64,000 nt of DNA from a virus (Duplodnaviria; Caudoviricetes), in the IMG/VR virus record IMGVR_UViG_3300031953_000001. The stretch is one strand, 5' to 3'. The notes below the pieces were generated by a model that worked only from the letters and a program-made list of their open reading frames with translations, made no database searches and was not told where the DNA came from. Positions within the stretch are counted from its first letter, which is position 1; every line of letters starts with the position of its first letter. Shown here in pieces: positions 19,569 through 46,961 of the stretch. A program made the translations under genes and the position numbers.

Positions 19569-20372
19569 TTAGACCGTCGTCTGACGCGCGTACGCTTCAG
19601 CCATTTTTTCATCGTACTTGTTCTTTTTGTAAGACGGTCCGTTGTAGATGCGTGCAAACGTTGCCCAGTCTTTTTGTTCTAACGCGCGGTGTAGCCGTGG
19701 GTCCGCGGCGATAAACCGTACAAAGGCATACAGTTGATGGGCTTCGTCGATGCACATCTTCGACATAAAGTCGTCCACTGAAGCGTAGTTGAGATACTTC
19801 CAGTGAAAACCCATGATCTGATATCGTCCGTACGATGCACTTTCTTTGGCAGCTGGGGTGTTCAACTCCATAGCTTTGCGCAGACGAGTCCATTCGTGCT
19901 TGCCCCCACGGTAACCGCCCCAACCGGTGTTGACCAAATCAGGACGTGCCGCTCGACCCAACTCCGCTGCCAGAGGTAACTTGGCCTCAAGCAGACGACG
20001 GTTCATGATGTGGCGCTCAAACAAGATTTTCGGCAGACCCGCTTCTAAGAAACCACCGCCTTGACTTTCCACCTCAGACACCGCCTTGATGGCCGCTACC
20101 TCTACACTCAACATTTCCGCAGCCCGCATCACGTCTTTCTCGGTCAACTGCCAATCGTCGACGCGGTTGTCGTTCAACTCTTCCCAGGTTCGCTTACCGG
20201 CTACGCCGTCGGCCAACAGTCCCGCTTTTGTTTGAAACGCCACTAAGGCCCGGTGGGTACCTGGCCCAAAGGCCCCGTCATCGGGTGGATTAAGGTGACC
20301 TTTATCGATCAACAGGCGCTGCAGCTGTGCCACTGCCTGGCCCCGAGAACCCAACTTTATCAATTTACTCAT
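19569..20372 (-). CDS. modular endolysin: peptidoglycan-binding domain + DUF3380 N-acetylmuramidase
   Basis: IKLGSRGQAVAQLQ...DGAFGPGT...DGVAG..TW; AVSEVES, ILFERH, SYGRYQIMGF, FAR.YNGP.Y. Confidence 0.92.
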   Translation of the reverse strand: MSKLIKLGSRGQAVAQLQRLLIDKGHLNPPDDGAFGPGTHRALVAFQTKAGLLADGVAGKRTWEELNDNRVDDWQLTEKDVMRAAEMLSVEVAAIKAVSEVESQGGGFLEAGLPKILFERHIMNRRLLEAKLPLAAELGRAARPDLVNTGWGGYRGGKHEWTRLRKAMELNTPAAKESASYGRYQIMGFHWKYLNYASVDDFMSKMCIDEAHQLYAFVRFIAADPRLHRALEQKDWATFARIYNGPSYKKNKYDEKMAEAYARQTTV

Positions 20373-37381: not shown

Positions 37382-38437
37382 TCACCAATCGCATTTGTGG
37401 GGAAGATGTCCCAAAATAGAAAGACACTGGTCGGTCTCTAACAGCCGTTGCAGTCGATGCACCCCACGCGTCGCGCATTTGCTAACAAAGTGACACCCAG
37501 AACATGAGGTGAGGGTGGTGGCGTGTTCAACCGATTTAAAGTAGGTCTGTTGATCCGACCGTTGAATGGAATCCAGCGTCCACGGTTTATCGAATTTAAA
37601 GTCGGGGTGGAACACGGCGATGGGGCTGTTGATCAACGGAGCAATGTACAACTCACCGTCGCGGTACGATAAATGGTAATCTGAGCCGACGTGCGAATCC
37701 AAGTCGTCAATTTTAAACTCATACCCTTTATCGAGTTGATTGGCAAACACCGCGTTTTGCTTGAGAATGGTTCTGACGAATTCTTCCCGATTGCTCTTAA
37801 CGGTTAAGTCACGACGCCCATTGTGCAAGACGAAGGTGGTGGTGTCCGATCGTTTAAACAGCTGGATGTGGCGGGTTTCGTACAACACCTCTTCGGTGAT
37901 CAAGCCACTGTCAAGCATTGTCTCGGTCAGGTTCACTATAGTGGTCACACTGGCCAGACGAATGCTGGTTAAGTGCTGCTCAAACCAGGCAATACGCCCC
38001 CGCAGTTTCTCGATGTAGCCCAGGTTTCGATGGTGCTTCAATTCGAAAGGCACTAAGAACTCAACATCAAGGCCCGGCATGAACGCTTCCAGCTCTTTAG
38101 CAAACTGGACGTAGGCATCGGGATTGGGGTTCAAAAATGAGCAGTTGAACACCACCGATTTAAACCCCTTAACCATGTCTTTGATGGCTGGGTGGGTGAA
38201 TACGTCACGTCGGTTGCTGGCCGCCATGACATCCGTCGGGGCAAACTCCATCCACGACATCTCCCAGCCTCGTTGACGTACCTCTTCCACCACCTGAGTT
38301 AAGGCGTAAAGATCGTCTTCCGTGTACGGTGTAACGTCTTGGGTGTTGACACTGCAACCCGAACAGCTGTAGTCGCAGTCTTTCAACAACTCCAACGCAA
38401 GATTGCCAATGTTGTCTTCTCGGATCAGGAGGGTCAT
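37382..38437 (-). CDS. radical SAM-like protein (degenerate motif), paralog of 36289-37377
   Basis: CDYSCSGC; CSGCHFVSKC...C; ATGA overlap at 38434-38437. Confidence 0.7.
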   Translation of the reverse strand: MTLLIREDNIGNLALELLKDCDYSCSGCSVNTQDVTPYTEDDLYALTQVVEEVRQRGWEMSWMEFAPTDVMAASNRRDVFTHPAIKDMVKGFKSVVFNCSFLNPNPDAYVQFAKELEAFMPGLDVEFLVPFELKHHRNLGYIEKLRGRIAWFEQHLTSIRLASVTTIVNLTETMLDSGLITEEVLYETRHIQLFKRSDTTTFVLHNGRRDLTVKSNREEFVRTILKQNAVFANQLDKGYEFKIDDLDSHVGSDYHLSYRDGELYIAPLINSPIAVFHPDFKFDKPWTLDSIQRSDQQTYFKSVEHATTLTSCSGCHFVSKCATRGVHRLQRLLETDQCLSILGHLPHKCDW

Positions 38438-39381
38438 TGTTGCTCTGCCCATTGGATCAGGTGAATAAACCCGTTGCACGAGTACTCCGTGCTTTGGACG
38501 TCTCTTAAATGTTCCGACAGACAACGCCCTAAGTAGCGACACCCACTGCACCCAGAGTTTTGTACGCGCTCTTTCTCGGTCACGCACCATGCGAAATACT
38601 CATCGATGGAGTCTAACTCTAAGAAGAACTCGTTGTCTTGGGCGTCAAACTCCAACACCCCAAATTTCCCAGTGGGTGTCACATAGACGTGGTCGTCTGA
38701 AAAAGCGTTGCCCCGTCCGGCGATCACTTCATCCAACTGCTGTGCATTGACAAAGTCGAACTTCATCTCGTCACGGCGGGCGTGCAGTACTTTGATGAAC
38801 GCCTCGTACTCCGGATAACTGACCGGCAGTTGGTTGGCTTGATTGGGGCTGTAAGGCTTGATCTCCACCGAACTGAGGTTGGCCAGCAAGTTCAAGGTGC
38901 CAATGATCTCATCCGGGTTCTTTGCCAAAAGCGCGGGTGAGGCCAACATCAAGATGCAGAACTCCCGTTCCATCTTCAGCATTTGCTGAAAGACAAGGTC
39001 GCTTTTCTCTCGGGCGTCGAAATCGTAGCTGACCGACAGGTACCAATCGGGATCGTGCACCACCGGGTTGTTCATCGACAGGTTGGTGATGATGTTCAGA
39101 TCGTCAATGCCGCGAAGATGCAGTCCGGCTTTGAGTTCCGTCAAGTACTCCACAGGCAGCAGCAGAGGCTCGCCGCCGTACAGATCCACCATCCCGACCT
39201 CAGCCACGGCTAAGACCTCATCCACCCGCTCAAAGAGCCGTGAGAGCTTAAGACGTTGCTTGTCTCCAAGTTGCTCATCCGTCAAGTAACAAAACGAGCA
39301 ACGAAAGTTGCAATAGTAGCTAGGATTCAGGCTGAGGTTCAGAGTCGGCTTAACCGACGGCGATGATGTTGCTGGGTACAT
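38434..39381 (-). CDS. radical SAM protein
   Basis: CNFRCSFC, YGGEPLL, C-terminal CSGCRYLGRC...C. Confidence 0.9.
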   Translation of the reverse strand: MYPATSSPSVKPTLNLSLNPSYYCNFRCSFCYLTDEQLGDKQRLKLSRLFERVDEVLAVAEVGMVDLYGGEPLLLPVEYLTELKAGLHLRGIDDLNIITNLSMNNPVVHDPDWYLSVSYDFDAREKSDLVFQQMLKMEREFCILMLASPALLAKNPDEIIGTLNLLANLSSVEIKPYSPNQANQLPVSYPEYEAFIKVLHARRDEMKFDFVNAQQLDEVIAGRGNAFSDDHVYVTPTGKFGVLEFDAQDNEFFLELDSIDEYFAWCVTEKERVQNSGCSGCRYLGRCLSEHLRDVQSTEYSCNGFIHLIQWAEQQ

Positions 39382-40450
39382 CGATGGCCTCATTGACGTA
39401 GTCGGTAGGGATCAGTTGTCCGGTTAACCCATTGGCGTCGATGATCTGAGGGGCCAGAGCTTTCATCTTCACGCAGTGTTCTTCCACCCGCCCGGTTTTC
39501 TTTGCGTCGCGGATGCTTTTCTTGCACCCGTTGCAGATTGAAAACATAGGACAGAAGTAACAACTCTGTTTCAGGCTGGCCAACTCAACCACCTGCAAGG
39601 GCCGTTGTTTTGCCCCCGCCATCTCAACTTCAAAGTCAATGGGGTATTCTCCATCGTCACCAAAGGAGCCGCAGGAGTAATAACCGCCGTTGGGTTGCAT
39701 GTTGCGAATGCCCGAGTCACAATCCCGAGCCAAAGGACAGGTGGTTGCTCCCCCGGCTAAGACGGTCATCATCTGTTGAGTGCTGTGTTCCCACTGAGCC
39801 AGCCCTGCGGCGTAGATCTCAAGGTACACCTCGTACATGTCGGCCACCACAAAGTGCTGACCTTCGTTGCCCATGGTGCCTTTTCGAGTCTGGATCACCG
39901 GTCCTGAGGCGTTGGCGTAGTTCAGTTTGCACACCACGCCCATGGCCTTGGCCAACTCCACCGTTTTTACCGCTGTGTCGCGGTTGCTTTCGTCGATGAC
40001 CGCAATGAACCCAGGACGATAACCCACGTGTTCCAGCATGGCGTCTGAGACGCCCCAGAACTCCTCTTCGGTGAAAGGGGTATAATCACCCTTTAAACGT
40101 TTGTCACCGTACTGGAAACTGGTGTGGACCCCAATGCGAGGATGATTGAACAGCTCAGACCACATCGAGGGTTTCTTGTAGAAAGGCCAGAGGTTAGTGG
40201 TCAAAGATAAGACCGTCTCCTCCATCTCCAACTCGTCCAAGACCGCAATTATGTCCCAGTAATACTGCACTGGCATCATCAGAGGATCACCGCCGTTGAC
40301 GATGATGGTCTGGGTTTCTGGGTAACGCACTAAGAACCGCCGGATGTCCGCCACAGACACTATGTCGTCTTTGTCGTCAGCGATGTTGGTGCTGGAGCAA
40401 AAGGTGCATTTAAAATTGCATTTCTCAGTCGGTTTTATGATCAAGTCGAT
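39350..40450 (-). CDS. radical SAM/SPASM protein (start ATC 40450 or TTG 40444)
   Basis: IKPTEKCNFKCTFC, NGGDPL, CPLARDC...SCG...CYFCPMFSICNGC...C. Confidence 0.92.
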   Translation of the reverse strand: MDLIIKPTEKCNFKCTFCSSTNIADDKDDIVSVADIRRFLVRYPETQTIIVNGGDPLMMPVQYYWDIIAVLDELEMEETVLSLTTNLWPFYKKPSMWSELFNHPRIGVHTSFQYGDKRLKGDYTPFTEEEFWGVSDAMLEHVGYRPGFIAVIDESNRDTAVKTVELAKAMGVVCKLNYANASGPVIQTRKGTMGNEGQHFVVADMYEVYLEIYAAGLAQWEHSTQQMMTVLAGGATTCPLARDCDSGIRNMQPNGGYYSCGSFGDDGEYPIDFEVEMAGAKQRPLQVVELASLKQSCYFCPMFSICNGCKKSIRDAKKTGRVEEHCVKMKALAPQIIDANGLTGQLIPTDYVNEAIDVPSNIIAVG

Positions 40451-40481: not shown

Positions 40482-41540
40482 TCATACCGCTACAATTGGA
40501 ATCAGACCCAAGGCAGTGTTGTGCAAGACGTCGATGTATCGGTGGGTGGCTTTATACACACACTCGTCCATCTCGTCGCGAAAGCGGTAATTGTGTTGCA
40601 TGAAACAGCCCAACTCACACCGATGAAAATACTCACAGGTGGTGCAGCCGTACTTCTCCATGAACGCTTCTTCTATACCGCTGTTGTCTTTGGCTTCAAT
40701 GGGGGTGGTGTAAATATCTTTGGCCACCTCCGGGTCGATCAGATTCCCGCAGCCGCAAATCGTGCCATCTTCCAACACCAACTTACTGGACCGACACGAC
40801 AGACTCGACGACTGACGTTTCAACCAACCGGCGATCGGCTCACACCGAGGGTAGCGATCGATCAGAAACTTGAACATACGAAACAGGTCGGTGTCGCTGG
40901 GGGCGGCGTCGGTGCGCTCATCCGGCATCAGGTAATCAAAGTACATCTTGAACCCGGCCTGATACGCCCACTGAAAGAACTCGTCGGTGTCTTTTACAAA
41001 GTGGTCGATGTTTTGTTTGGTCATCAACAAACTGATGCTGGTCACTGTCTCAGGGCCGTAGTATTCCAGGTTGGCACGGAACTGTTTGAACTGCTTCCGA
41101 TTGAACCGTCCTTTAGGATCGTAAGAGACGGTCACGGTGGTCTTGACGTCCACCGTTTGTACTCGCTCCAAAAAAGACGTCAGCTGAGTGGTGTCCGGAG
41201 TCACCAGGTTGGTGACCCAGTTCAAGGTTACCTCTAGGTTCAGCTCGCGACACATCTCAGCGATCGCTTGACTGAAGTAGAGGTACGTGTCCGCCAGAAG
41301 TGGGGTAAAGATCTCAGGAGCAAAGACCTCACCGCCCATGATGTTAAACACCACCTGCGATTTGGTCTCTTGTTCCAACAGCGACCGAACAATAGGGAGC
41401 TTGTCCAGTACGTCATCTACCCCCACCAGTGAATCGTGATCCTGCCAACAGAAACTGCACGACAGATTGCAATAGGTAAACAGGTGCAACGTGTACTCCT
41501 GTTCCTTATCGCGTTTGTTCTGTAAAAAGAGGTCGGTCAT
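40482..41540 (-). CDS. radical SAM/SPASM protein
   Basis: CNLSCSFC, MGGE, C...CGC...CTTCEYFHRCELGC...C. Confidence 0.92.
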   Translation of the reverse strand: MTDLFLQNKRDKEQEYTLHLFTYCNLSCSFCWQDHDSLVGVDDVLDKLPIVRSLLEQETKSQVVFNIMGGEVFAPEIFTPLLADTYLYFSQAIAEMCRELNLEVTLNWVTNLVTPDTTQLTSFLERVQTVDVKTTVTVSYDPKGRFNRKQFKQFRANLEYYGPETVTSISLLMTKQNIDHFVKDTDEFFQWAYQAGFKMYFDYLMPDERTDAAPSDTDLFRMFKFLIDRYPRCEPIAGWLKRQSSSLSCRSSKLVLEDGTICGCGNLIDPEVAKDIYTTPIEAKDNSGIEEAFMEKYGCTTCEYFHRCELGCFMQHNYRFRDEMDECVYKATHRYIDVLHNTALGLIPIVAV

Positions 41541-42550
41541 AGTTCAAAGCCTTTGCACGCCTCCGGACTCAGACTCACGGCCCAATGGATTAAGTGCACG
41601 TTGAGTTTGTCCAGATCCGCCCAGTCCAGGTAATCGGTGTGCTCGTTGCTGGCACGGAGCATGTCGATGAACAGATCGGTGACTTGGTTGTTGCCCATGG
41701 GTACGCTGGTGTTAACGATCTTCAACTTAGCCCGCTCGGCGCTGACTTGAGTTTTCTCAATCGCCTCCGACTGCTCCAGATACAACGCGTAGTCACTCAC
41801 CACCGCCTCGATGGCCGCTGGCTTAAGTCGAGTAATGCCGGCTCTCAACTTAGGGTTGTTGATCATGGTGAGCCTAGGAATCTTCGACAACAAATCAACT
41901 TCTCCTAAGTGGTCTTTTGCCGTGTACCCGTATTTCTCTTGCATGTAATCTGAGAAGAACAGAAGCGTCAGATTGCGTTGAGTCTCATCGAGGGTGTTGA
42001 GTACGCCGCGCAGGGCAAACACTCGGATCGACTCGGCGATGCTGGCGCGTTTGTTCCCAGATAGATGATCCAGTAACTTATACTCCAACGACACCCGCTG
42101 AGTCAGGTCTTGGGTCAATGTTCTTAACTTGTCTTCCCTTGGGGTACGACTCAAGTTCTCGATCCACGTCTTTAAAGTCGTCGGGTCAGGCAAGCCGACG
42201 CCTTGAGCGTGCAGGGTCAGCATCTCCAAGTTAAGGAGTGTCTTTATCTGATCGTCCTGAGCGTTAGGGAAGATGGCTTTCAACCACATAGCCACCAAGG
42301 CCCCATACGTCTCCAAACTGACATAGATCACCAGCTTAGCATCGCCGGCTTCTACAAACTTGGCCAGCAGCTCGACAAACCCCTCGTCGATAAAGGCCGC
42401 CTCATCCTGAGTCTTACCCACCATCACAGGACCCACGCCCAAACGTTCGTCGTAGTTCTCAGCCAGCTGAGCCGACGCCAGATAGAAGGTGTGCTTATCC
42501 GACTTGAGTGAATCTACTTCGAGGTAAACCCGACTGAATAAATGATACAT
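41537..42550 (-). CDS. hypothetical protein of the radical SAM unit
   Basis: 337 aa, coupled on both sides; no catalytic motif recognised. Confidence 0.75.
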   Translation of the reverse strand: MYHLFSRVYLEVDSLKSDKHTFYLASAQLAENYDERLGVGPVMVGKTQDEAAFIDEGFVELLAKFVEAGDAKLVIYVSLETYGALVAMWLKAIFPNAQDDQIKTLLNLEMLTLHAQGVGLPDPTTLKTWIENLSRTPREDKLRTLTQDLTQRVSLEYKLLDHLSGNKRASIAESIRVFALRGVLNTLDETQRNLTLLFFSDYMQEKYGYTAKDHLGEVDLLSKIPRLTMINNPKLRAGITRLKPAAIEAVVSDYALYLEQSEAIEKTQVSAERAKLKIVNTSVPMGNNQVTDLFIDMLRASNEHTDYLDWADLDKLNVHLIHWAVSLSPEACKGFEL

Positions 42551-43275
42551 TACGCGTCCTCGATGGCTTCGTGGTTGTGCTTTAAGGTAGACATCAGTCC
42601 GTCAAACTCGGTGTCTGTGACCACCTCGGCGTCGCTGAAGGTCAACGACATCAGGTACACGTCGTTCTCCGGGATTGCCCAGAAGTGAAACAGGTTCTTA
42701 CTTTTGAACATGTAGTCGTTGAAATACTTGGTGTAGTTCTTCACCAACCCCTCGTTAACTGCCCCTAAGGCAATTGGAAACAACGGGTTATCAAACAAAT
42801 GAACAAAGTTAATGCCTTTGGTATCCGACGTGTCGTCTGTGGGATAAACGTCCACCACGCTTTGGAGCTTCTCGTCCTGAAACGTGGTCATCACGTACAG
42901 ACTCATCGAGTCAATCAACGACAGCCACTTGCCCAAGATCTCAAGGTGCTCTTTGATCCACTGATCGGTGACCCAGCTGCACTCGGCAAGTCCTTTGATG
43001 TGCAAGACGACTTCCAACACCAAGGTTTCCAGTTGAGGGCACTTTAACAAGGTCGGCAGATTGAGGTACGCGTCCACCACCTCCAGGACGTCTTCACCCA
43101 AGAACGTAACGTCCACCGGCAACTCCAAGTTGCTCAGATAGATCAACGCTTGTAAGGGCGCTACTTTATCTTTGGAGGCACTCAGGTCCACGTCCAGGAT
43201 CACGTCAGGGTCGCCGATCACGGCTCTGAGGGTGGTTACGGGTATGGGTACGTTGGTTTTAATGACGGTACTCAT
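42550..43275 (-). CDS. hypothetical protein of the radical SAM unit
   Basis: TGATG overlap with the CHxx-tail gene gives start 43275. Confidence 0.75.
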   Translation of the reverse strand: MSTVIKTNVPIPVTTLRAVIGDPDVILDVDLSASKDKVAPLQALIYLSNLELPVDVTFLGEDVLEVVDAYLNLPTLLKCPQLETLVLEVVLHIKGLAECSWVTDQWIKEHLEILGKWLSLIDSMSLYVMTTFQDEKLQSVVDVYPTDDTSDTKGINFVHLFDNPLFPIALGAVNEGLVKNYTKYFNDYMFKSKNLFHFWAIPENDVYLMSLTFSDAEVVTDTEFDGLMSTLKHNHEAIEDA

Positions 43276-43829
43276 CAACGGCGTCCTCGGGAGTTGTGGC
43301 AGTTGCTGTGACATTGCGTATGACACACTTGTCGTGAGAAAGTTCTAAGCGTATTAACTCGGGCGCTCTGAGCGTAGAGGTTGCGCACCCGTTCAATGTA
43401 GTCGTATGTTTGAGACTGATCCACCGGCAATCCGTTGACCAACCCACCGGCGGCAGGACTCGCCAGAGGCACGTAATCGCCCGCCGGTAAATGCGCAATG
43501 GCGATCGCGTTGTAGATCACCGTGGCGGTGTTGTTGGAGTACCCGGACTTACTGCGGGTGATGTAGATTTGGGTACGACGAATCCGTGAGTACACGTTAA
43601 CGTAACTCATAAAGACATCACGTAAGGTTTTGGCGGTTAACTCGTCTGAGGGCACTTGCAGTTGCGCCAACGAGGGCACGCCTAGATCGCCTGAGGTGGT
43701 GCCACCGAACCAACTCACCAGCGAGTTAGCTGGATAGATGTTGGTACCCCAAGAGATACCCGATCGGGTGTATCCAACCACCCGTCCTACGAACTGATTG
43801 TACACGTCTAATGATTTAACGTCAGCCAT
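43275..43829 (-). CDS. putative structural protein with C-terminal (CHxx)3-SRGRR tail; candidate radical SAM substrate
   Basis: 184 aa ending VCHTQCHSNCHNSRGRR; these are its only Cys; flanked by radical SAM genes. Confidence 0.75.
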   Translation of the reverse strand: MADVKSLDVYNQFVGRVVGYTRSGISWGTNIYPANSLVSWFGGTTSGDLGVPSLAQLQVPSDELTAKTLRDVFMSYVNVYSRIRRTQIYITRSKSGYSNNTATVIYNAIAIAHLPAGDYVPLASPAAGGLVNGLPVDQSQTYDYIERVRNLYAQSARVNTLRTFSRQVCHTQCHSNCHNSRGRR

Positions 43830-43873: not shown

Positions 43874-44923
43874 TTATCCGACGTTGAGTGCCGGAATTAG
43901 TTCAGGCGCGCCGTATTTAAAGTGCGAGAGCAACAACATCAACCCCGGACACGAATCGCCCTGCCACACCAAGCGGTGACAATCGCCTCCACACACGTCC
44001 AACAGATGGCAACTCACGCAGTTGGGGTTGAGGTCCAACTCGGTGGTGATGCGCTCCATCCGTCCTTCACTGACCAGAAACTCATCAATGGGGTCGTTCA
44101 AGGTACCGTTGGATTCTGCCTTAGCCCCGTTGGCACAACCGCCGATGTTGCCAGCTCCATCAATAGTGAACAGATTCTGTTCACAGTCACGACAGTTGGT
44201 GTCTACTTTGAACTGATTGGTTTCAAACTTGGTTTCAATGGCGTCCAAGGTGTTGATGTGGTAGTTGGGCTTTAGTCGCTTGTACGCAAAGTACAGGTCG
44301 TAGTAAAACCGATCCACCGCTCGATTGTCTGGAAACATGTGGGGGTTGTCCACCGCGTTGCCATCGGACGTCAAGCGCTCCACCGCAATCTCCGTTACCC
44401 CAAATTCTCCCCACAAGTGAATCAACTCGTCGATGTCGTACGTCAGTAACTGATCGGTCACCGTGACGAACATCTTGATGGTGATGCCTTGAGCTCGCAG
44501 CATGGTCAAGTTGTTGCGCCACTGCGTGTACATGCGTTCGGTCTTAAACCGATAAACCGGGTCCCAACTGGTGCCCACGTGACTGCTCATCATCGTCTTA
44601 AAGAATTCGACGTGGCGATCGGTTAGCTTGTAGATCAGATTGGTGGTGGCGCCAATGGAGATATCTTCCCAACGTTCGACACTGACCCGCGACCGCACCG
44701 CGTTAGCAAACTGCCAGTGCTCGTCAATCGGGCGTAAGAAAGGCTCACCCCCGTGCAATTCTAGATGTAGATGTTCCTCGGGAAATCGCTGACCTAATTC
44801 ACTGGCCCACTGTGCTACTTTATCGATGTCCCAGACGGTTTTAGCGCCCTTAGACCCGGAGGTGAAACAGTGATCGCAATCGAGGTTGCAGGTGTCCGTG
44901 GGTTTTATGTAAACAACTTTCAT
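43874..44923 (-). CDS. radical SAM/SPASM protein
   Basis: IKPTDTCNLDCDHC, HGGEPF, CRDC...GC...CVSCHLLDVCGGDC...C. Confidence 0.92.
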   Translation of the reverse strand: MKVVYIKPTDTCNLDCDHCFTSGSKGAKTVWDIDKVAQWASELGQRFPEEHLHLELHGGEPFLRPIDEHWQFANAVRSRVSVERWEDISIGATTNLIYKLTDRHVEFFKTMMSSHVGTSWDPVYRFKTERMYTQWRNNLTMLRAQGITIKMFVTVTDQLLTYDIDELIHLWGEFGVTEIAVERLTSDGNAVDNPHMFPDNRAVDRFYYDLYFAYKRLKPNYHINTLDAIETKFETNQFKVDTNCRDCEQNLFTIDGAGNIGGCANGAKAESNGTLNDPIDEFLVSEGRMERITTELDLNPNCVSCHLLDVCGGDCHRLVWQGDSCPGLMLLLSHFKYGAPELIPALNVG

Positions 44924-45402
44924 AACTTCCACCGGTCTTCAATAAAACGTTCATTGCCAAAACTGATCATGATCGACTCCTCGTGATTCAACGCGCGGTG
45001 AGGCACACCGGCGAGAACCCAGACACCGGGGTTGTCTGCGTTTAACGTTACCAGCTCCCCTGCAATCTCAAGGGTCTTAGTGCCCCAGATCCACTTTAAG
45101 TAAATGTCATAGGGGTCTTGATGAAGAGGGAAACTGGGAGCCCCGGCACAGGCCCAAAACAAATGAGCGTTGCAAGGTCCCTCGTGTCCGCTTTCTTCTT
45201 TGATACGACACGTTTCTAAGTAGACCTCTTTAAAGACTTTCTCCAACTCTTCTACCTTTACAGTTTTTAAACTGTCGTCAAACACCTCGGCTGCCGATTG
45301 AGCTGGGCGTATCTGTTGGTCAGCATCAATGCGCGAGACCATACCTTCTTCGTACAAATCGGGTAGGGTGAGCAGCAGCTCAAGTCGGTCTTTAAAGTCC
45401 AT
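44920..45402 (-). CDS. minimal JmjC/cupin_4-like 2OG oxygenase
   Basis: SFPLHQDPYD (HxD), GTK, distal His in GVPHRA; GAGGAG RBS before ATG 45402. Confidence 0.75.
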   Translation of the reverse strand: MDFKDRLELLLTLPDLYEEGMVSRIDADQQIRPAQSAAEVFDDSLKTVKVEELEKVFKEVYLETCRIKEESGHEGPCNAHLFWACAGAPSFPLHQDPYDIYLKWIWGTKTLEIAGELVTLNADNPGVWVLAGVPHRALNHEESIMISFGNERFIEDRWKL

Positions 45403-45459
45403 CGCGTGTCTCCTCGTTAATCTCATAAGGTGTATGATTAACGTACGGCTTTATATAAA

Positions 45460-45489
45460 AGGGAAAAAAGAGAGGACCGAAGTCCTCTC
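45460..45489 (-). terminator. intrinsic terminator separating the fibre gene from the radical SAM unit
   Basis: Minus strand GAGAGGAC-TTCG-GTCCTCTC-TTTTTT. Confidence 0.85.
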
Positions 45490-45503: not shown

Positions 45504-46961
45504 TTACTGCCACTGAGGCGGCCAAACCTGACGCCAAGTACCGGCCACATACGCTTGCAACGTGCCCGCGGATTCACGCAGCGACAAAGACTCATTGACG
45601 TTCTTCTGAACGTATCTCGCTAGAGTGCCTGTGAGGGTCTCTGTTACATAACTACTGACCAACGCAGGGGTCATGTACCGGTCAGACGCCGTACCCGTAA
45701 GCGCTTCCAGAGAACTGGCTACAGGGAAATTGCTAACCGACCCCAAACCCACTTGCGCCTTAGTGACTTGGTGGGGGTTGCTGGTGTTGCTCACGTGAGC
45801 AGTCAACGGCAGTCCAGCCTGGAACGCAATGGCTTCTTTTACGCGCTGCGGTGTCATGTACCGATCGTTGCGAGTACCTTCCTGAGCATCCAACAAAGAC
45901 CCCAGAGGGTGATTCGCCACCGAACCCAAGCCCACTTGGGTCTTGGTCACCAGATGCGGGTTGTCTTTATTGGCGTCGTGTGCCGCCACCGCGTCTCCAG
46001 CCAACTGATCAATCGCCGCCACCAAACTCGGAGGCGTGATGTACCGATCGGAACGTACCCCTTCAATTGCCTCAGCCGGGGTGGCGTCCAAGTTGTTACT
46101 GAGGTTTCCTAAGCCCACTTGAGCTTTGGTCACCAAATGCGGGTTGTCTGACCGAGCTGTGTGTGCACTCAGATCCACCCCAACCTGACTGGCGATGGCT
46201 TGACGTACCCGATTGGGCGTCATGAACCGAGAGTTGTTCAGACCCTCTTCCGCTTCGAGTTGGGTGGCGTCTCGGTAGTTGGACACCTGAGACAAACCCA
46301 CTTGAGTTTGAGTGACCTGATGTGGGTTGTCGGTGCGGTCGGAGTGAGACTCCAATTGGGTGCGCACTTCTTCAGCCCGGGTCAACGCTAACTGGTATCG
46401 GTCTTCGATCTGTATCCGTATCTCATCGTGCGAGGCCACATCGCCGTACAGAATCGCTTGACGGATCTGATCCAGCTGCTGCACCACGTACTCAAAACCG
46501 TAAATGTCGCCTAAGTCGTGCAGGTGAGGTGAGGGTGGAAACGCGTCTGGCCGTCCCAGCAAATCGCCCCATATGACTTCACGGTCATCGAGGTTCAGGT
46601 TATCAATCAGATCGATAATGACCTGAGTGATGTTGGCGTAGTCGCCTCCCACCACCTGATAGTCAAGAGTGACCTCATCGGATACCGATCCGTCGGTGAC
46701 GATCACCGCCGTGCAAATTTCCTTACCCGAGCGCTCGCTGGGTTCGGCGTAGTACATGATCGGAATGTACTGATCGTTCGGAACCAGCAACGCACCACTG
46801 ATGCCGTCGCGGACCACCAAGGACTCGGTGTAAAAGGCACCGTATCTGGGTACCGCCGCGCGGTTGAGGCCTGGGTGCAACGTGTGCGGTTCCCCAAGAA
46901 GCAAGTTCTCAGGCGAGGTACCCGTTAAGTCTAATGGGTACTTGTTGACGATATCATTCAT
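45504..46961 (-). CDS. tail fibre-like virion protein with NPHxVTxxQVGL repeats
   Basis: Four repeats; N-terminus YPLDLTG.S..NL...E.H homologous to 50718-53399. Confidence 0.8.
   Translation of the reverse strand: MNDIVNKYPLDLTGTSPENLLLGEPHTLHPGLNRAAVPRYGAFYTESLVVRDGISGALLVPNDQYIPIMYYAEPSERSGKEICTAVIVTDGSVSDEVTLDYQVVGGDYANITQVIIDLIDNLNLDDREVIWGDLLGRPDAFPPSPHLHDLGDIYGFEYVVQQLDQIRQAILYGDVASHDEIRIQIEDRYQLALTRAEEVRTQLESHSDRTDNPHQVTQTQVGLSQVSNYRDATQLEAEEGLNNSRFMTPNRVRQAIASQVGVDLSAHTARSDNPHLVTKAQVGLGNLSNNLDATPAEAIEGVRSDRYITPPSLVAAIDQLAGDAVAAHDANKDNPHLVTKTQVGLGSVANHPLGSLLDAQEGTRNDRYMTPQRVKEAIAFQAGLPLTAHVSNTSNPHQVTKAQVGLGSVSNFPVASSLEALTGTASDRYMTPALVSSYVTETLTGTLARYVQKNVNESLSLRESAGTLQAYVAGTWRQVWPPQWQ

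Follow-up and report, generated by a model that had tools for sequence, protein, structure and literature searches.

A phage protein with a conserved Cys-His-x-Ser tail, a candidate substrate of neighbouring radical SAM enzymes

We analysed a 64,000-nucleotide stretch of Caudoviricetes phage DNA (IMG/VR record IMGVR_UViG_3300031953_000001), hereafter the window. At positions 43275-43829, on the minus strand, it encodes a 184-residue protein (20.3 kDa, pI 9.6) that ends with three consecutive Cys-His units. We name it the CHxS protein, after the Cys-His-x-Ser unit seen in the consensus of its family. The tail is conserved in a large family of proteins. An orthologous radical S-adenosylmethionine (rSAM) enzyme, rSAM-A, is encoded immediately upstream in every isolate phage and metagenome locus inspected. 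One homologue is present in a virion proteome. On balance, we think it probable that the CHxS protein serves in the virion or in host contact and that its tail is modified by the rSAM enzymes encoded beside it.

The CHxS tail and its family

The 184-residue protein contains exactly three cysteines, all located within the C-terminal sequence VCHTQCHSNCHNSRGRR (units CHTQ, CHSN and CHNS). The carboxyl end reads ...RQVCHTQCHSNCHNSRGRR*, also given as ...SRQVCHTQCHSNCHNSRGRR. An earlier note on this DNA had pointed out this clustering of the cysteines ahead of a final RGRR, and we find the same. The motif V-(CHTQ)(CHSN)(CHNS)-RGRR, proposed to be a modification or a metal site, is encoded at 43278-43328 on the minus strand. 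It occurs only once in the 222,493-bp genome of this jumbo phage. Scans of the protein against Pfam, NCBIfam and PHROGs gave no match.

A word-seeded search identified seven relatives. An exhaustive profile search against 1.84 billion representative sequences then yielded 537 clusters with E<=1e-3, of which 229 reach E<=1e-10. We assembled a comparison set of 159 sequences, mostly 50%-identity cluster representatives from the profile search. The ending CHxxCHxxCHxxRxRR is found in 141 of the 159, with the consensus [VI]-C-H-x-S-C-H-x-[SN]-C-H-x-S-R-x-R-R at the carboxyl end. All Cys, His and Arg residues of the motif are invariant across these 141 tails, and the fourth position of units 1, 2 and 3 is Ser or Asn in 137, 137 and 134 of them, respectively. 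Cysteines are confined to the tail in 89. The tail motif is far beyond chance. The bodies show about 25-30% identity, and 20-35% in comparisons with that of the window protein. The tail is therefore under far stronger constraint than the fold.

The number of units varies. Typical members have three, P0027 has two, P0079 has four and P0125 has thirteen, arranged in five blocks. Such variation is as would be expected for a modular site. A four-unit subgroup ends with a Gly/Asp-rich sequence instead of RxRR, and a poly-proline spacer is found in P0150. P0079, P0116, P0123 and P0133 form a "CHGDGPGxGGG" subgroup devoid of RxRR.

A first AlphaFold2 model, calculated with eight sequences, was mediocre. 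With an alignment of 126 sequences, the predicted local distance difference test score (pLDDT) reached 92.6 and the predicted template modelling score 0.85. A compact alpha/beta domain spans residues 1-168, and the tail, which begins right after the last strand, has a pLDDT of about 57. In the model, the CHxS protein looks like a folded domain with an exposed, accessible C-terminal arm and no leader peptide. No signal peptide was found in CHxS proteins from phages or bacteria. The tail contains overlapping CX3CH sequences and c-type heme attachment was considered; we rejected it on the grounds that the protein lacks a signal peptide and is synthesised in the cytoplasm.

Searches for structural similarities with the CHxS body gave little. 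Foldseek against the PDB retrieved nothing better than E 0.4, the best Z score of VIA-align wide (5.0) was at noise level, and a shape search of the ESM Atlas stayed at a template modelling (TM) score of 0.33 or below. In AFDB clusters, only two uncharacterised members of the family were found. BFVD returned family members and three larger uncharacterised phage proteins. The latter, A0A8S5USV2, A0A8S5USJ8 and A0A8S5USJ7 from Myoviridae sp. ctijX18, are paralogues of 504-660 residues with the CHxS-body fold inside (TM 0.50-0.57 by query, E ~1e-4).

The radical SAM cassette

The candidate maturase rSAM-A, a radical SAM/SPASM enzyme of 352 residues, is encoded at 43874-44932 on the minus strand. 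The 44 nucleotides that separate it from the CHxS gene contain an AGGAAG ribosome-binding site and no convincing terminator signal. At the other end of the CHxS gene, the TGA stop codon (43277-43275) overlaps, by its A, the start codon of the gene that follows (ATG, 43275-43273). The TGATG coupling described in the earlier note is therefore real, as is the position of the gene directly after an rSAM/SPASM gene.

We scanned IMG/VR and found 188 viral contigs with a CHxS relative. Eighty loci were fetched and their open reading frames (ORFs) were classified with hidden Markov models; 78 of these loci include upstream sequence. In all 78, an rSAM-A orthologue is the immediate upstream neighbour of the CHxS gene, and the median intergenic distance is 1 nucleotide. 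The synteny is thus obligate in this sample. The earlier note had named homologues commonly found away from rSAM genes as the observation that would speak against its proposal; with rSAM-A adjacent in 78 loci out of 78, this observation is absent.

The dominant gene order in the IMG/VR loci is cupin, rSAM-A, CHxS, p241, p337, rSAM. The cupin is present in 70 of the 80 loci. Across cassettes, the iron oxygenase is this cupin or sometimes a 2-oxoglutarate (2OG) enzyme, and one or more further rSAM genes follow p337. The same order is seen in Pseudomonas phage pPa_SNUABM_DT01, in Agrobacterium phage Atu_ph07 and in divergent metagenome contigs. In the phiKZ-related group of RSL2, FLC and SURPRISE13, p241 is missing and p337 directly follows the CHxS gene. 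The p241-less cassette corresponds to ORF066-069 of Ralstonia phage RSL2 and to gp70-73 of Burkholderia phage SURPRISE13 (loci L012/L013). Two genes annotated as dihydrofolate reductases are found among the downstream rSAM genes of SURPRISE13. Accessory enzymes vary and are not conserved across the family. No peptidase is found in the conserved core.

rSAM-A matches PF04055, the SPASM family TIGR04085 (28.9 bits for a cut-off of 27) and phrog_1802 (E 1e-52). Its CxxxCxxC motif begins at residue 15, which leaves no N-terminal RiPP recognition element (RRE; RiPP, peptide made by ribosomes and modified after translation). This motif and the SPASM cysteines are invariant in 74 orthologues, which share 38-79% identity. 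The sole full-length relative of known structure is the anaerobic sulfatase-maturating enzyme (anSME) 4K36 (E 1.8e-9, residues 8-315 aligned with 8-333). Matches of the cassette rSAMs to curated NCBIfam models are generic, with 20-48 bits for cut-offs of 170-650; DynA, AmcB, PapB, anSME and HxsB come out on top. The anSME model TIGR03942 is among the top matches of rSAM-A and rSAM-C (41.5 bits, cut-off 349.45). rSAM-A scores 39.5 bits with TIGR03978 (HxsB; cut-off 370) and rSAM-C 24.1 bits with TIGR03977 (cut-off 267.9). The CXXX-repeat maturase model TIGR04115 remains at 21.1 bits, below its cut-off of 350, and rSAM-B matches TIGR03906 with E 2e-4. Prediction of an rSAM-A:CHxS complex with three 4Fe-4S clusters and SAM gave a score of 0.01 and supports no conclusion.

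The other genes of the cassette are also on the minus strand. The first one (44920-45426), which overlaps the start of rSAM-A, encodes a candidate cupin-type (JmjC-like) iron oxygenase of 168 residues (phrog_8014, E 1.3e-10); its orthologues are annotated as, or score as, Cupin_2. The conserved partner p241 (42550-43275; phrog_20767) is the gene coupled to CHxS. A mechanically called ORF for p241 (42550-43326, 258 residues) uses a GTG within the CHxS tail, and the conserved protein starts from ATG 43275, the likely start. A second conserved partner, p337 (41537-42550), has the N-terminal sequence M-x-H-L-F-x-[KR]-V-Y-L. Scans of 36 p337 and 36 p241 sequences gave no Pfam match. The CHxS protein, p241 and p337 were also compared by profile with PDB sequences, which revealed nothing credible, and Atlas feature searches with p241 and p337 gave nothing usable. 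The sixth core gene encodes rSAM-B (40482-41540), a second radical SAM/SPASM-like enzyme with a conserved position after p337 (phrog_1802, E 1.7e-44; PF04055 weak). Two further paralogues were recognised from family-profile matches, rSAM-C (39350-40444; radical SAM/SPASM) and rSAM-D (38434-39393; radical SAM).

Directly upstream of the cassette is a minus-strand gene (45504-46961) whose product, a tail-fibre or virion structural protein, matches phrog_2163 (E 1e-135) and contains four internal copies of a motif of the type NPH-x-VT-x-x-QVGLG-x-V-x-N. A strong intrinsic terminator with a UUCG loop, GAGAGGAC-TTCG-GTCCTCTC followed by a T-run (45470-45489, minus strand), sets this gene apart from the cassette.

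Cassettes are also found in bacterial assemblies. Contig scans of genomes identified three loci in metagenome-assembled genomes (MAGs), and 9 of 301 genomes had a match in the class that holds the Bdellovibrio-labelled MAG. Two contigs, one labelled Bdellovibrio (L095) and one Rhodobacteraceae (L094), have flanks devoid of Pfam matches and may be mis-binned phage DNA. The Rhodobacteraceae-labelled MAG (G003; contigs C48, C116 and C131; loci L094 and L099-L104) contains six CHxS-tailed paralogues of about 130-140 residues, in tandem pairs on three contigs. The contig GC content is only 37%, and this may be DNA of a phage that was mis-binned and has an enlarged set of substrates. The only contig proven to be chromosomal is G060:C4 (299 kb), which belongs to a genome of the class with the Bdellovibrio-labelled MAG. 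Its cassette comprises several rSAM genes, a CHxS protein ending with PPPCHGSCHGSCHGSRGRR, p337 and p241, in an order unlike that of the phages. An rSAM-A orthologue is found about 6 kb away, on the opposite strand. The flanks encode a PilQ-type secretin, PilM, carbamoyl-phosphate synthase, aspartate carbamoyltransferase and a signal peptidase. The cassette lies between the type IV pilus pilM...pilQ block and carAB/pyrB (G060:C4:177000-216999, loci L110 and L111). A neighbouring gene encodes a 348-residue pilin-like protein that has a pilin methylation motif at its N-terminus and Peptidase_S74 at its C-terminus.

Virion association and possible fates of the tail

The proteome of Atu_ph07 particles was determined by electrospray ionization tandem mass spectrometry by Attai et al. 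(PMC6102473). We assigned the CHxS homologue of this phage, AUZ94952.1 (296 residues, 31.89 kDa), to gp170 of the virion list by molecular weight. As a check of the mapping, gp176 (66.07 kDa) and gp177 (21.66 kDa) match AUZ94958 and AUZ94959 exactly. gp170 was detected with 8 unique peptides (35% coverage) in gel fragments 1-9, and its abundance peaks in fragment 1, at the top of the gel (PMC6102473). In the same gel, proteins of 75-140 kDa peak in fragment 1 and other proteins of 30-37 kDa in fragments 6-8 (PMC6102473). A gp170 trimer would have a mass of 95.7 kDa. The rSAM (40.9 kDa), p241-like (30.4 kDa) and p337-like (42.6 kDa) proteins of Atu_ph07 are absent from the virion list (PMC6102473). 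The loading buffer, as described, contained EDTA and no reductant (PMC6102473). The high-mass form could therefore be disulfide-linked, thioether-linked or simply SDS-stable. We also sought a second virion proteome with phages ΦRP12/ΦRP31, and no CHxS-like ORF is evident in their rSAM region.

A second indication comes from the family member P0087 (L044:6001-6948). In this protein, GDSPGTGDGTD comes after four CHxS units and leads into a Peptidase_S74 domain (E 1.5e-11) that starts with the autocleavage motif SDERLK. Peptidase_S74 domains are intramolecular chaperones located at the C-termini of trimeric fibre and spike proteins. After autocleavage, the end of P0087 would resemble that of the "CHGDGPGxGGG" subgroup. 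Within the family, Peptidase_S74 (PF13884) is seen in P0087 only, and the window protein has no Pfam match to it. Another CHxS relative carries an N-terminal Gly_rich_2 domain. The idea, put forward in the earlier note as one of two roles for the body, that the protein is a fibre-tip, adhesin or virion subunit gains support from the Atu_ph07 homologue and from the P0087 fusion.

The other role, that of a leader-like body in a RiPP-like precursor, fits poorly: the body folds stably (pLDDT 92.6), there is no sign that a peptide is released, and the RRE-less maturase resembles the protein-modifying anSME. We propose that the 184-residue protein would have a structural or host-contact role, probably as a trimer in the baseplate or fibre periphery of the virion. 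Its flexible (Cys-His-x-Ser)x3-R-x-R-R tail would be the dedicated substrate of the surrounding cassette. rSAM-A, translated just before the CHxS protein, and the downstream rSAM paralogues would modify each CHxS unit via 5'-deoxyadenosyl radicals. The iron oxygenase (cupin or 2OG) may add an O2-dependent step, and p241 and p337 may act as non-virion helpers, adaptor or chaperone. We argue most strongly for the tail as a substrate, because of the obligate and translationally tight linkage with rSAM-A, the accessible arm, the modular repeats, the conservation of positions that would not be metal ligands (Ser/Asn at +3 and RxRR) and the RRE-less, anSME-like maturase. HxsA and CrpA are published examples of rSAM substrates that are also protein-sized. 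As for the chemistry, a thioether between the Cys sulfur and a carbon atom is favoured, either from Cys to the Ser/Asn at +3 of its own unit or across the chains of a trimer. Interchain thioethers would give a covalently locked, reduction-proof tip. The second option would be oxidation of Cys to formylglycine in the manner of anSME, since C-H-x-S-R, the last unit, recalls the +3 and +4 positions of the sulfatase motif.

Several points weigh against modification of the tail in a virion protein. Cys3His3 is typical of sites that bind metals. The remaining conserved genes of the cassette could act on another substrate. All rSAM family scores fall far short of the curated cut-offs, and the sequence therefore does not predict the chemistry. 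If the high-mass oligomer of Atu_ph07 is disulfide-linked or SDS-stable, it would imply free thiols. The Atu_ph07 virions were PEG-purified and the list holds obvious contaminants. Finally, the Atu_ph07 homologue is distant (33% identity over the C-terminal 41% of the query), so that a virion location in the window phage is extrapolated from a remote relative.

The composition of the tail is at the heart of another explanation, an unmodified metal-binding trimer tip. Three tails would align, layers of Cys and His would bind Zn, Fe, Ni, Cu or an Fe-S cluster, and the rSAMs would act elsewhere, for example on fibres or on a small molecule. Precedents exist, since T4 gp37 and P2 gpV-type spikes bind Fe through His residues on the three-fold axis. 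The P0087 fusion implies a trimeric C-terminal region, and the species at the top of the Atu_ph07 gel is compatible with free Cys forming disulfides after loss of the metal, the gel being non-reducing and the buffer containing EDTA. However, the spacing of the His residues is i+4 and not the HxH of known iron tips, and the number of units ranges from 2 to 13. A metal tip also leaves unexplained the near-invariant Ser/Asn at +3, the RxRR end, the adjacency of rSAM-A in 78 of 78 loci and its retention with the gene in bacterial chromosomes. We regard this explanation as a serious rival, though an unlikely one.

More doubtful still is a tip that would work through formylglycine, with rSAM-A oxidising CHxS cysteines, at least the last one (C-H-x-S-R), in an anSME-like reaction, and the aldehydes then cross-linking to partner proteins or to the host surface. 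The sulfatase signature is C-[ST]-P-[STA]-R. The last unit has the Ser at +3 and the Arg at +4 of this signature, and V or I precedes the first unit. The only full-length solved relative of rSAM-A is an anSME, and TIGR03942 is a top match of both rSAM-A and rSAM-C. However, the score is far below the anSME cut-off (41.5 vs 349 bits), no unit has Pro or Ala at +2, the first two have Cys instead of Arg at +4, and the body, with no Pfam match, is no sulfatase. We hold it very unlikely that the protein is a carrier or scaffold on or from which a small molecule or cofactor is built (like PqqA, MftA or LysW-type arms), with no function as virion cargo: the flexible C-terminal arm on a folded body and the large, variable enzyme set after the core in the window phage and its close relatives (2OG oxygenases, ketosynthase) would suit such a role, but the Atu_ph07 homologue was recovered from virions and the enzymes were not, no core peptidase is conserved and the accessory enzymes are not family-wide.

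Returning to a modified virion protein, a wider picture can be drawn, which we put forward as tentative. In it, rSAM enzymes would covalently cross-link the CHxS tails of a virion trimer through thioethers or aldehyde-derived bonds; this would be an enzymatic substitute for disulfides, compatible with the cytoplasm, that locks the host-contact tip. The machinery would be common to jumbo phages and predatory Bdellovibrio-type bacteria for attacking Gram-negative envelopes. The chromosomal copies beside type IV pilus genes hint at such a shared function.

To our knowledge, rSAM maturation is described for small peptides and a few cellular proteins, and no virion component is known to undergo it. 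Should the tail be modified, a new type of virion maturation would be added to proteolysis and the HK97-type isopeptide chainmail. A function would also be given to the puzzling multi-rSAM clusters of jumbo phages, which are left unexplained in the annotations of RSL2, FLC6, SURPRISE13, DT01 and Atu_ph07. Papers on isolate phages list the cassette genes only as hypothetical, cupin or radical SAM proteins, and our literature searches retrieved no paper describing the CHxS family. The family is large, its motif is sharp and the tryptic C-terminal peptide QVCHTQCHSNCHNSR is ideal for mass spectrometry. The question is thus directly testable in cultured phage-host pairs.

Comparison with known systems

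Precursors of sactipeptides and ranthipeptides share with the CHxS protein an adjacent rSAM/SPASM maturase. Their short leader-core organisation, the RRE and the release by a protease are not found here.

Metal-binding tips of fibres and spikes are known from the HxH iron sites of T4 gp37 and from the apex of P2 gpV and phi92 gp138. These tips resemble the CHxS tail in having a short periodic His motif at the C-terminal end, and in one CHxS member Peptidase_S74 is right behind the motif. In contrast, the CHxS motif has a Cys-His period of 4 instead of HxH, its body has no solved relative and it comes with a dedicated enzyme cassette.

The anSME enzymes (TIGR03942, PDB 4K36-4K39) are, like rSAM-A, rSAM/SPASM proteins of about 350-390 residues with no RRE. 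Together with their sulfatases they offer a whole-protein substrate and a short Cys-containing site followed by Ser at +3 and Arg at +4, features shared with the CHxS system. Unlike the anSME substrate, the CHxS motif is triplicated, its +2 position is G, S or N and never a conserved P/A, and Arg at +4 is restricted to the third unit.

SPASM rSAM enzymes are also known to form Cys thioethers on a protein-sized substrate, as with QhpC/QhpD of quinohemoprotein amine dehydrogenase. In the CrpA proteins of methanogens, SPASM thioethers are formed in Cx2-3 acceptor motifs and link Cys to a residue 3-4 positions away, as in CAVD, CAGM and CPLV (PMC13692751). CrpA is thus a precedent for an rSAM substrate of protein size. 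No homology between the two systems was detected beyond the rSAM superfamily. An RRE is present in CrpC, and cysteines abound along the whole of CrpA, with acidic or hydrophobic acceptors, whereas the CHxS protein has three Cys only, each before a His.

The HXS antiphage system comprises HxsA, the rSAMs HxsB and HxsC, and HxsD (TIGR03976-03979; Li et al., Nat Commun 2026, PMC13128918). HxsA is modified inside the HxS unit (SHRSS, +8 Da; PMC13128918). As in HXS, the CHxS protein has tandem His-Xaa-Ser units rich in basic residues in a protein of substrate size (three H-x-S/N units, each after an invariant Cys), and is accompanied by more than one rSAM and by small helpers. There is, however, no sequence relationship, and the maturases are not orthologues of HxsB/HxsC; TIGR03979 (HxsA) gave no match at E<=10 with six CHxS members, including the isolated tail. 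The only TIGR03979 match in the phage genome, at about 20205-20348 of the window (G000:C1:121785-121928; 11.5 bits, E 0.026), is probably a low-complexity chance similarity unrelated to the CHxS gene. An invariant Cys starts each CHxS unit, the array is at the extreme C-terminus and ends with RxRR, and no peptidoglycan-binding domain or N-terminal processing signal is detectable. Moreover, HXS defends against phages, whereas CHxS is carried by phages and a homologue is found in the virion. By these features the CHxS system stands outside each of the known groups, yet in its mode of action it would be closest to HXS and to anSME or CrpC.

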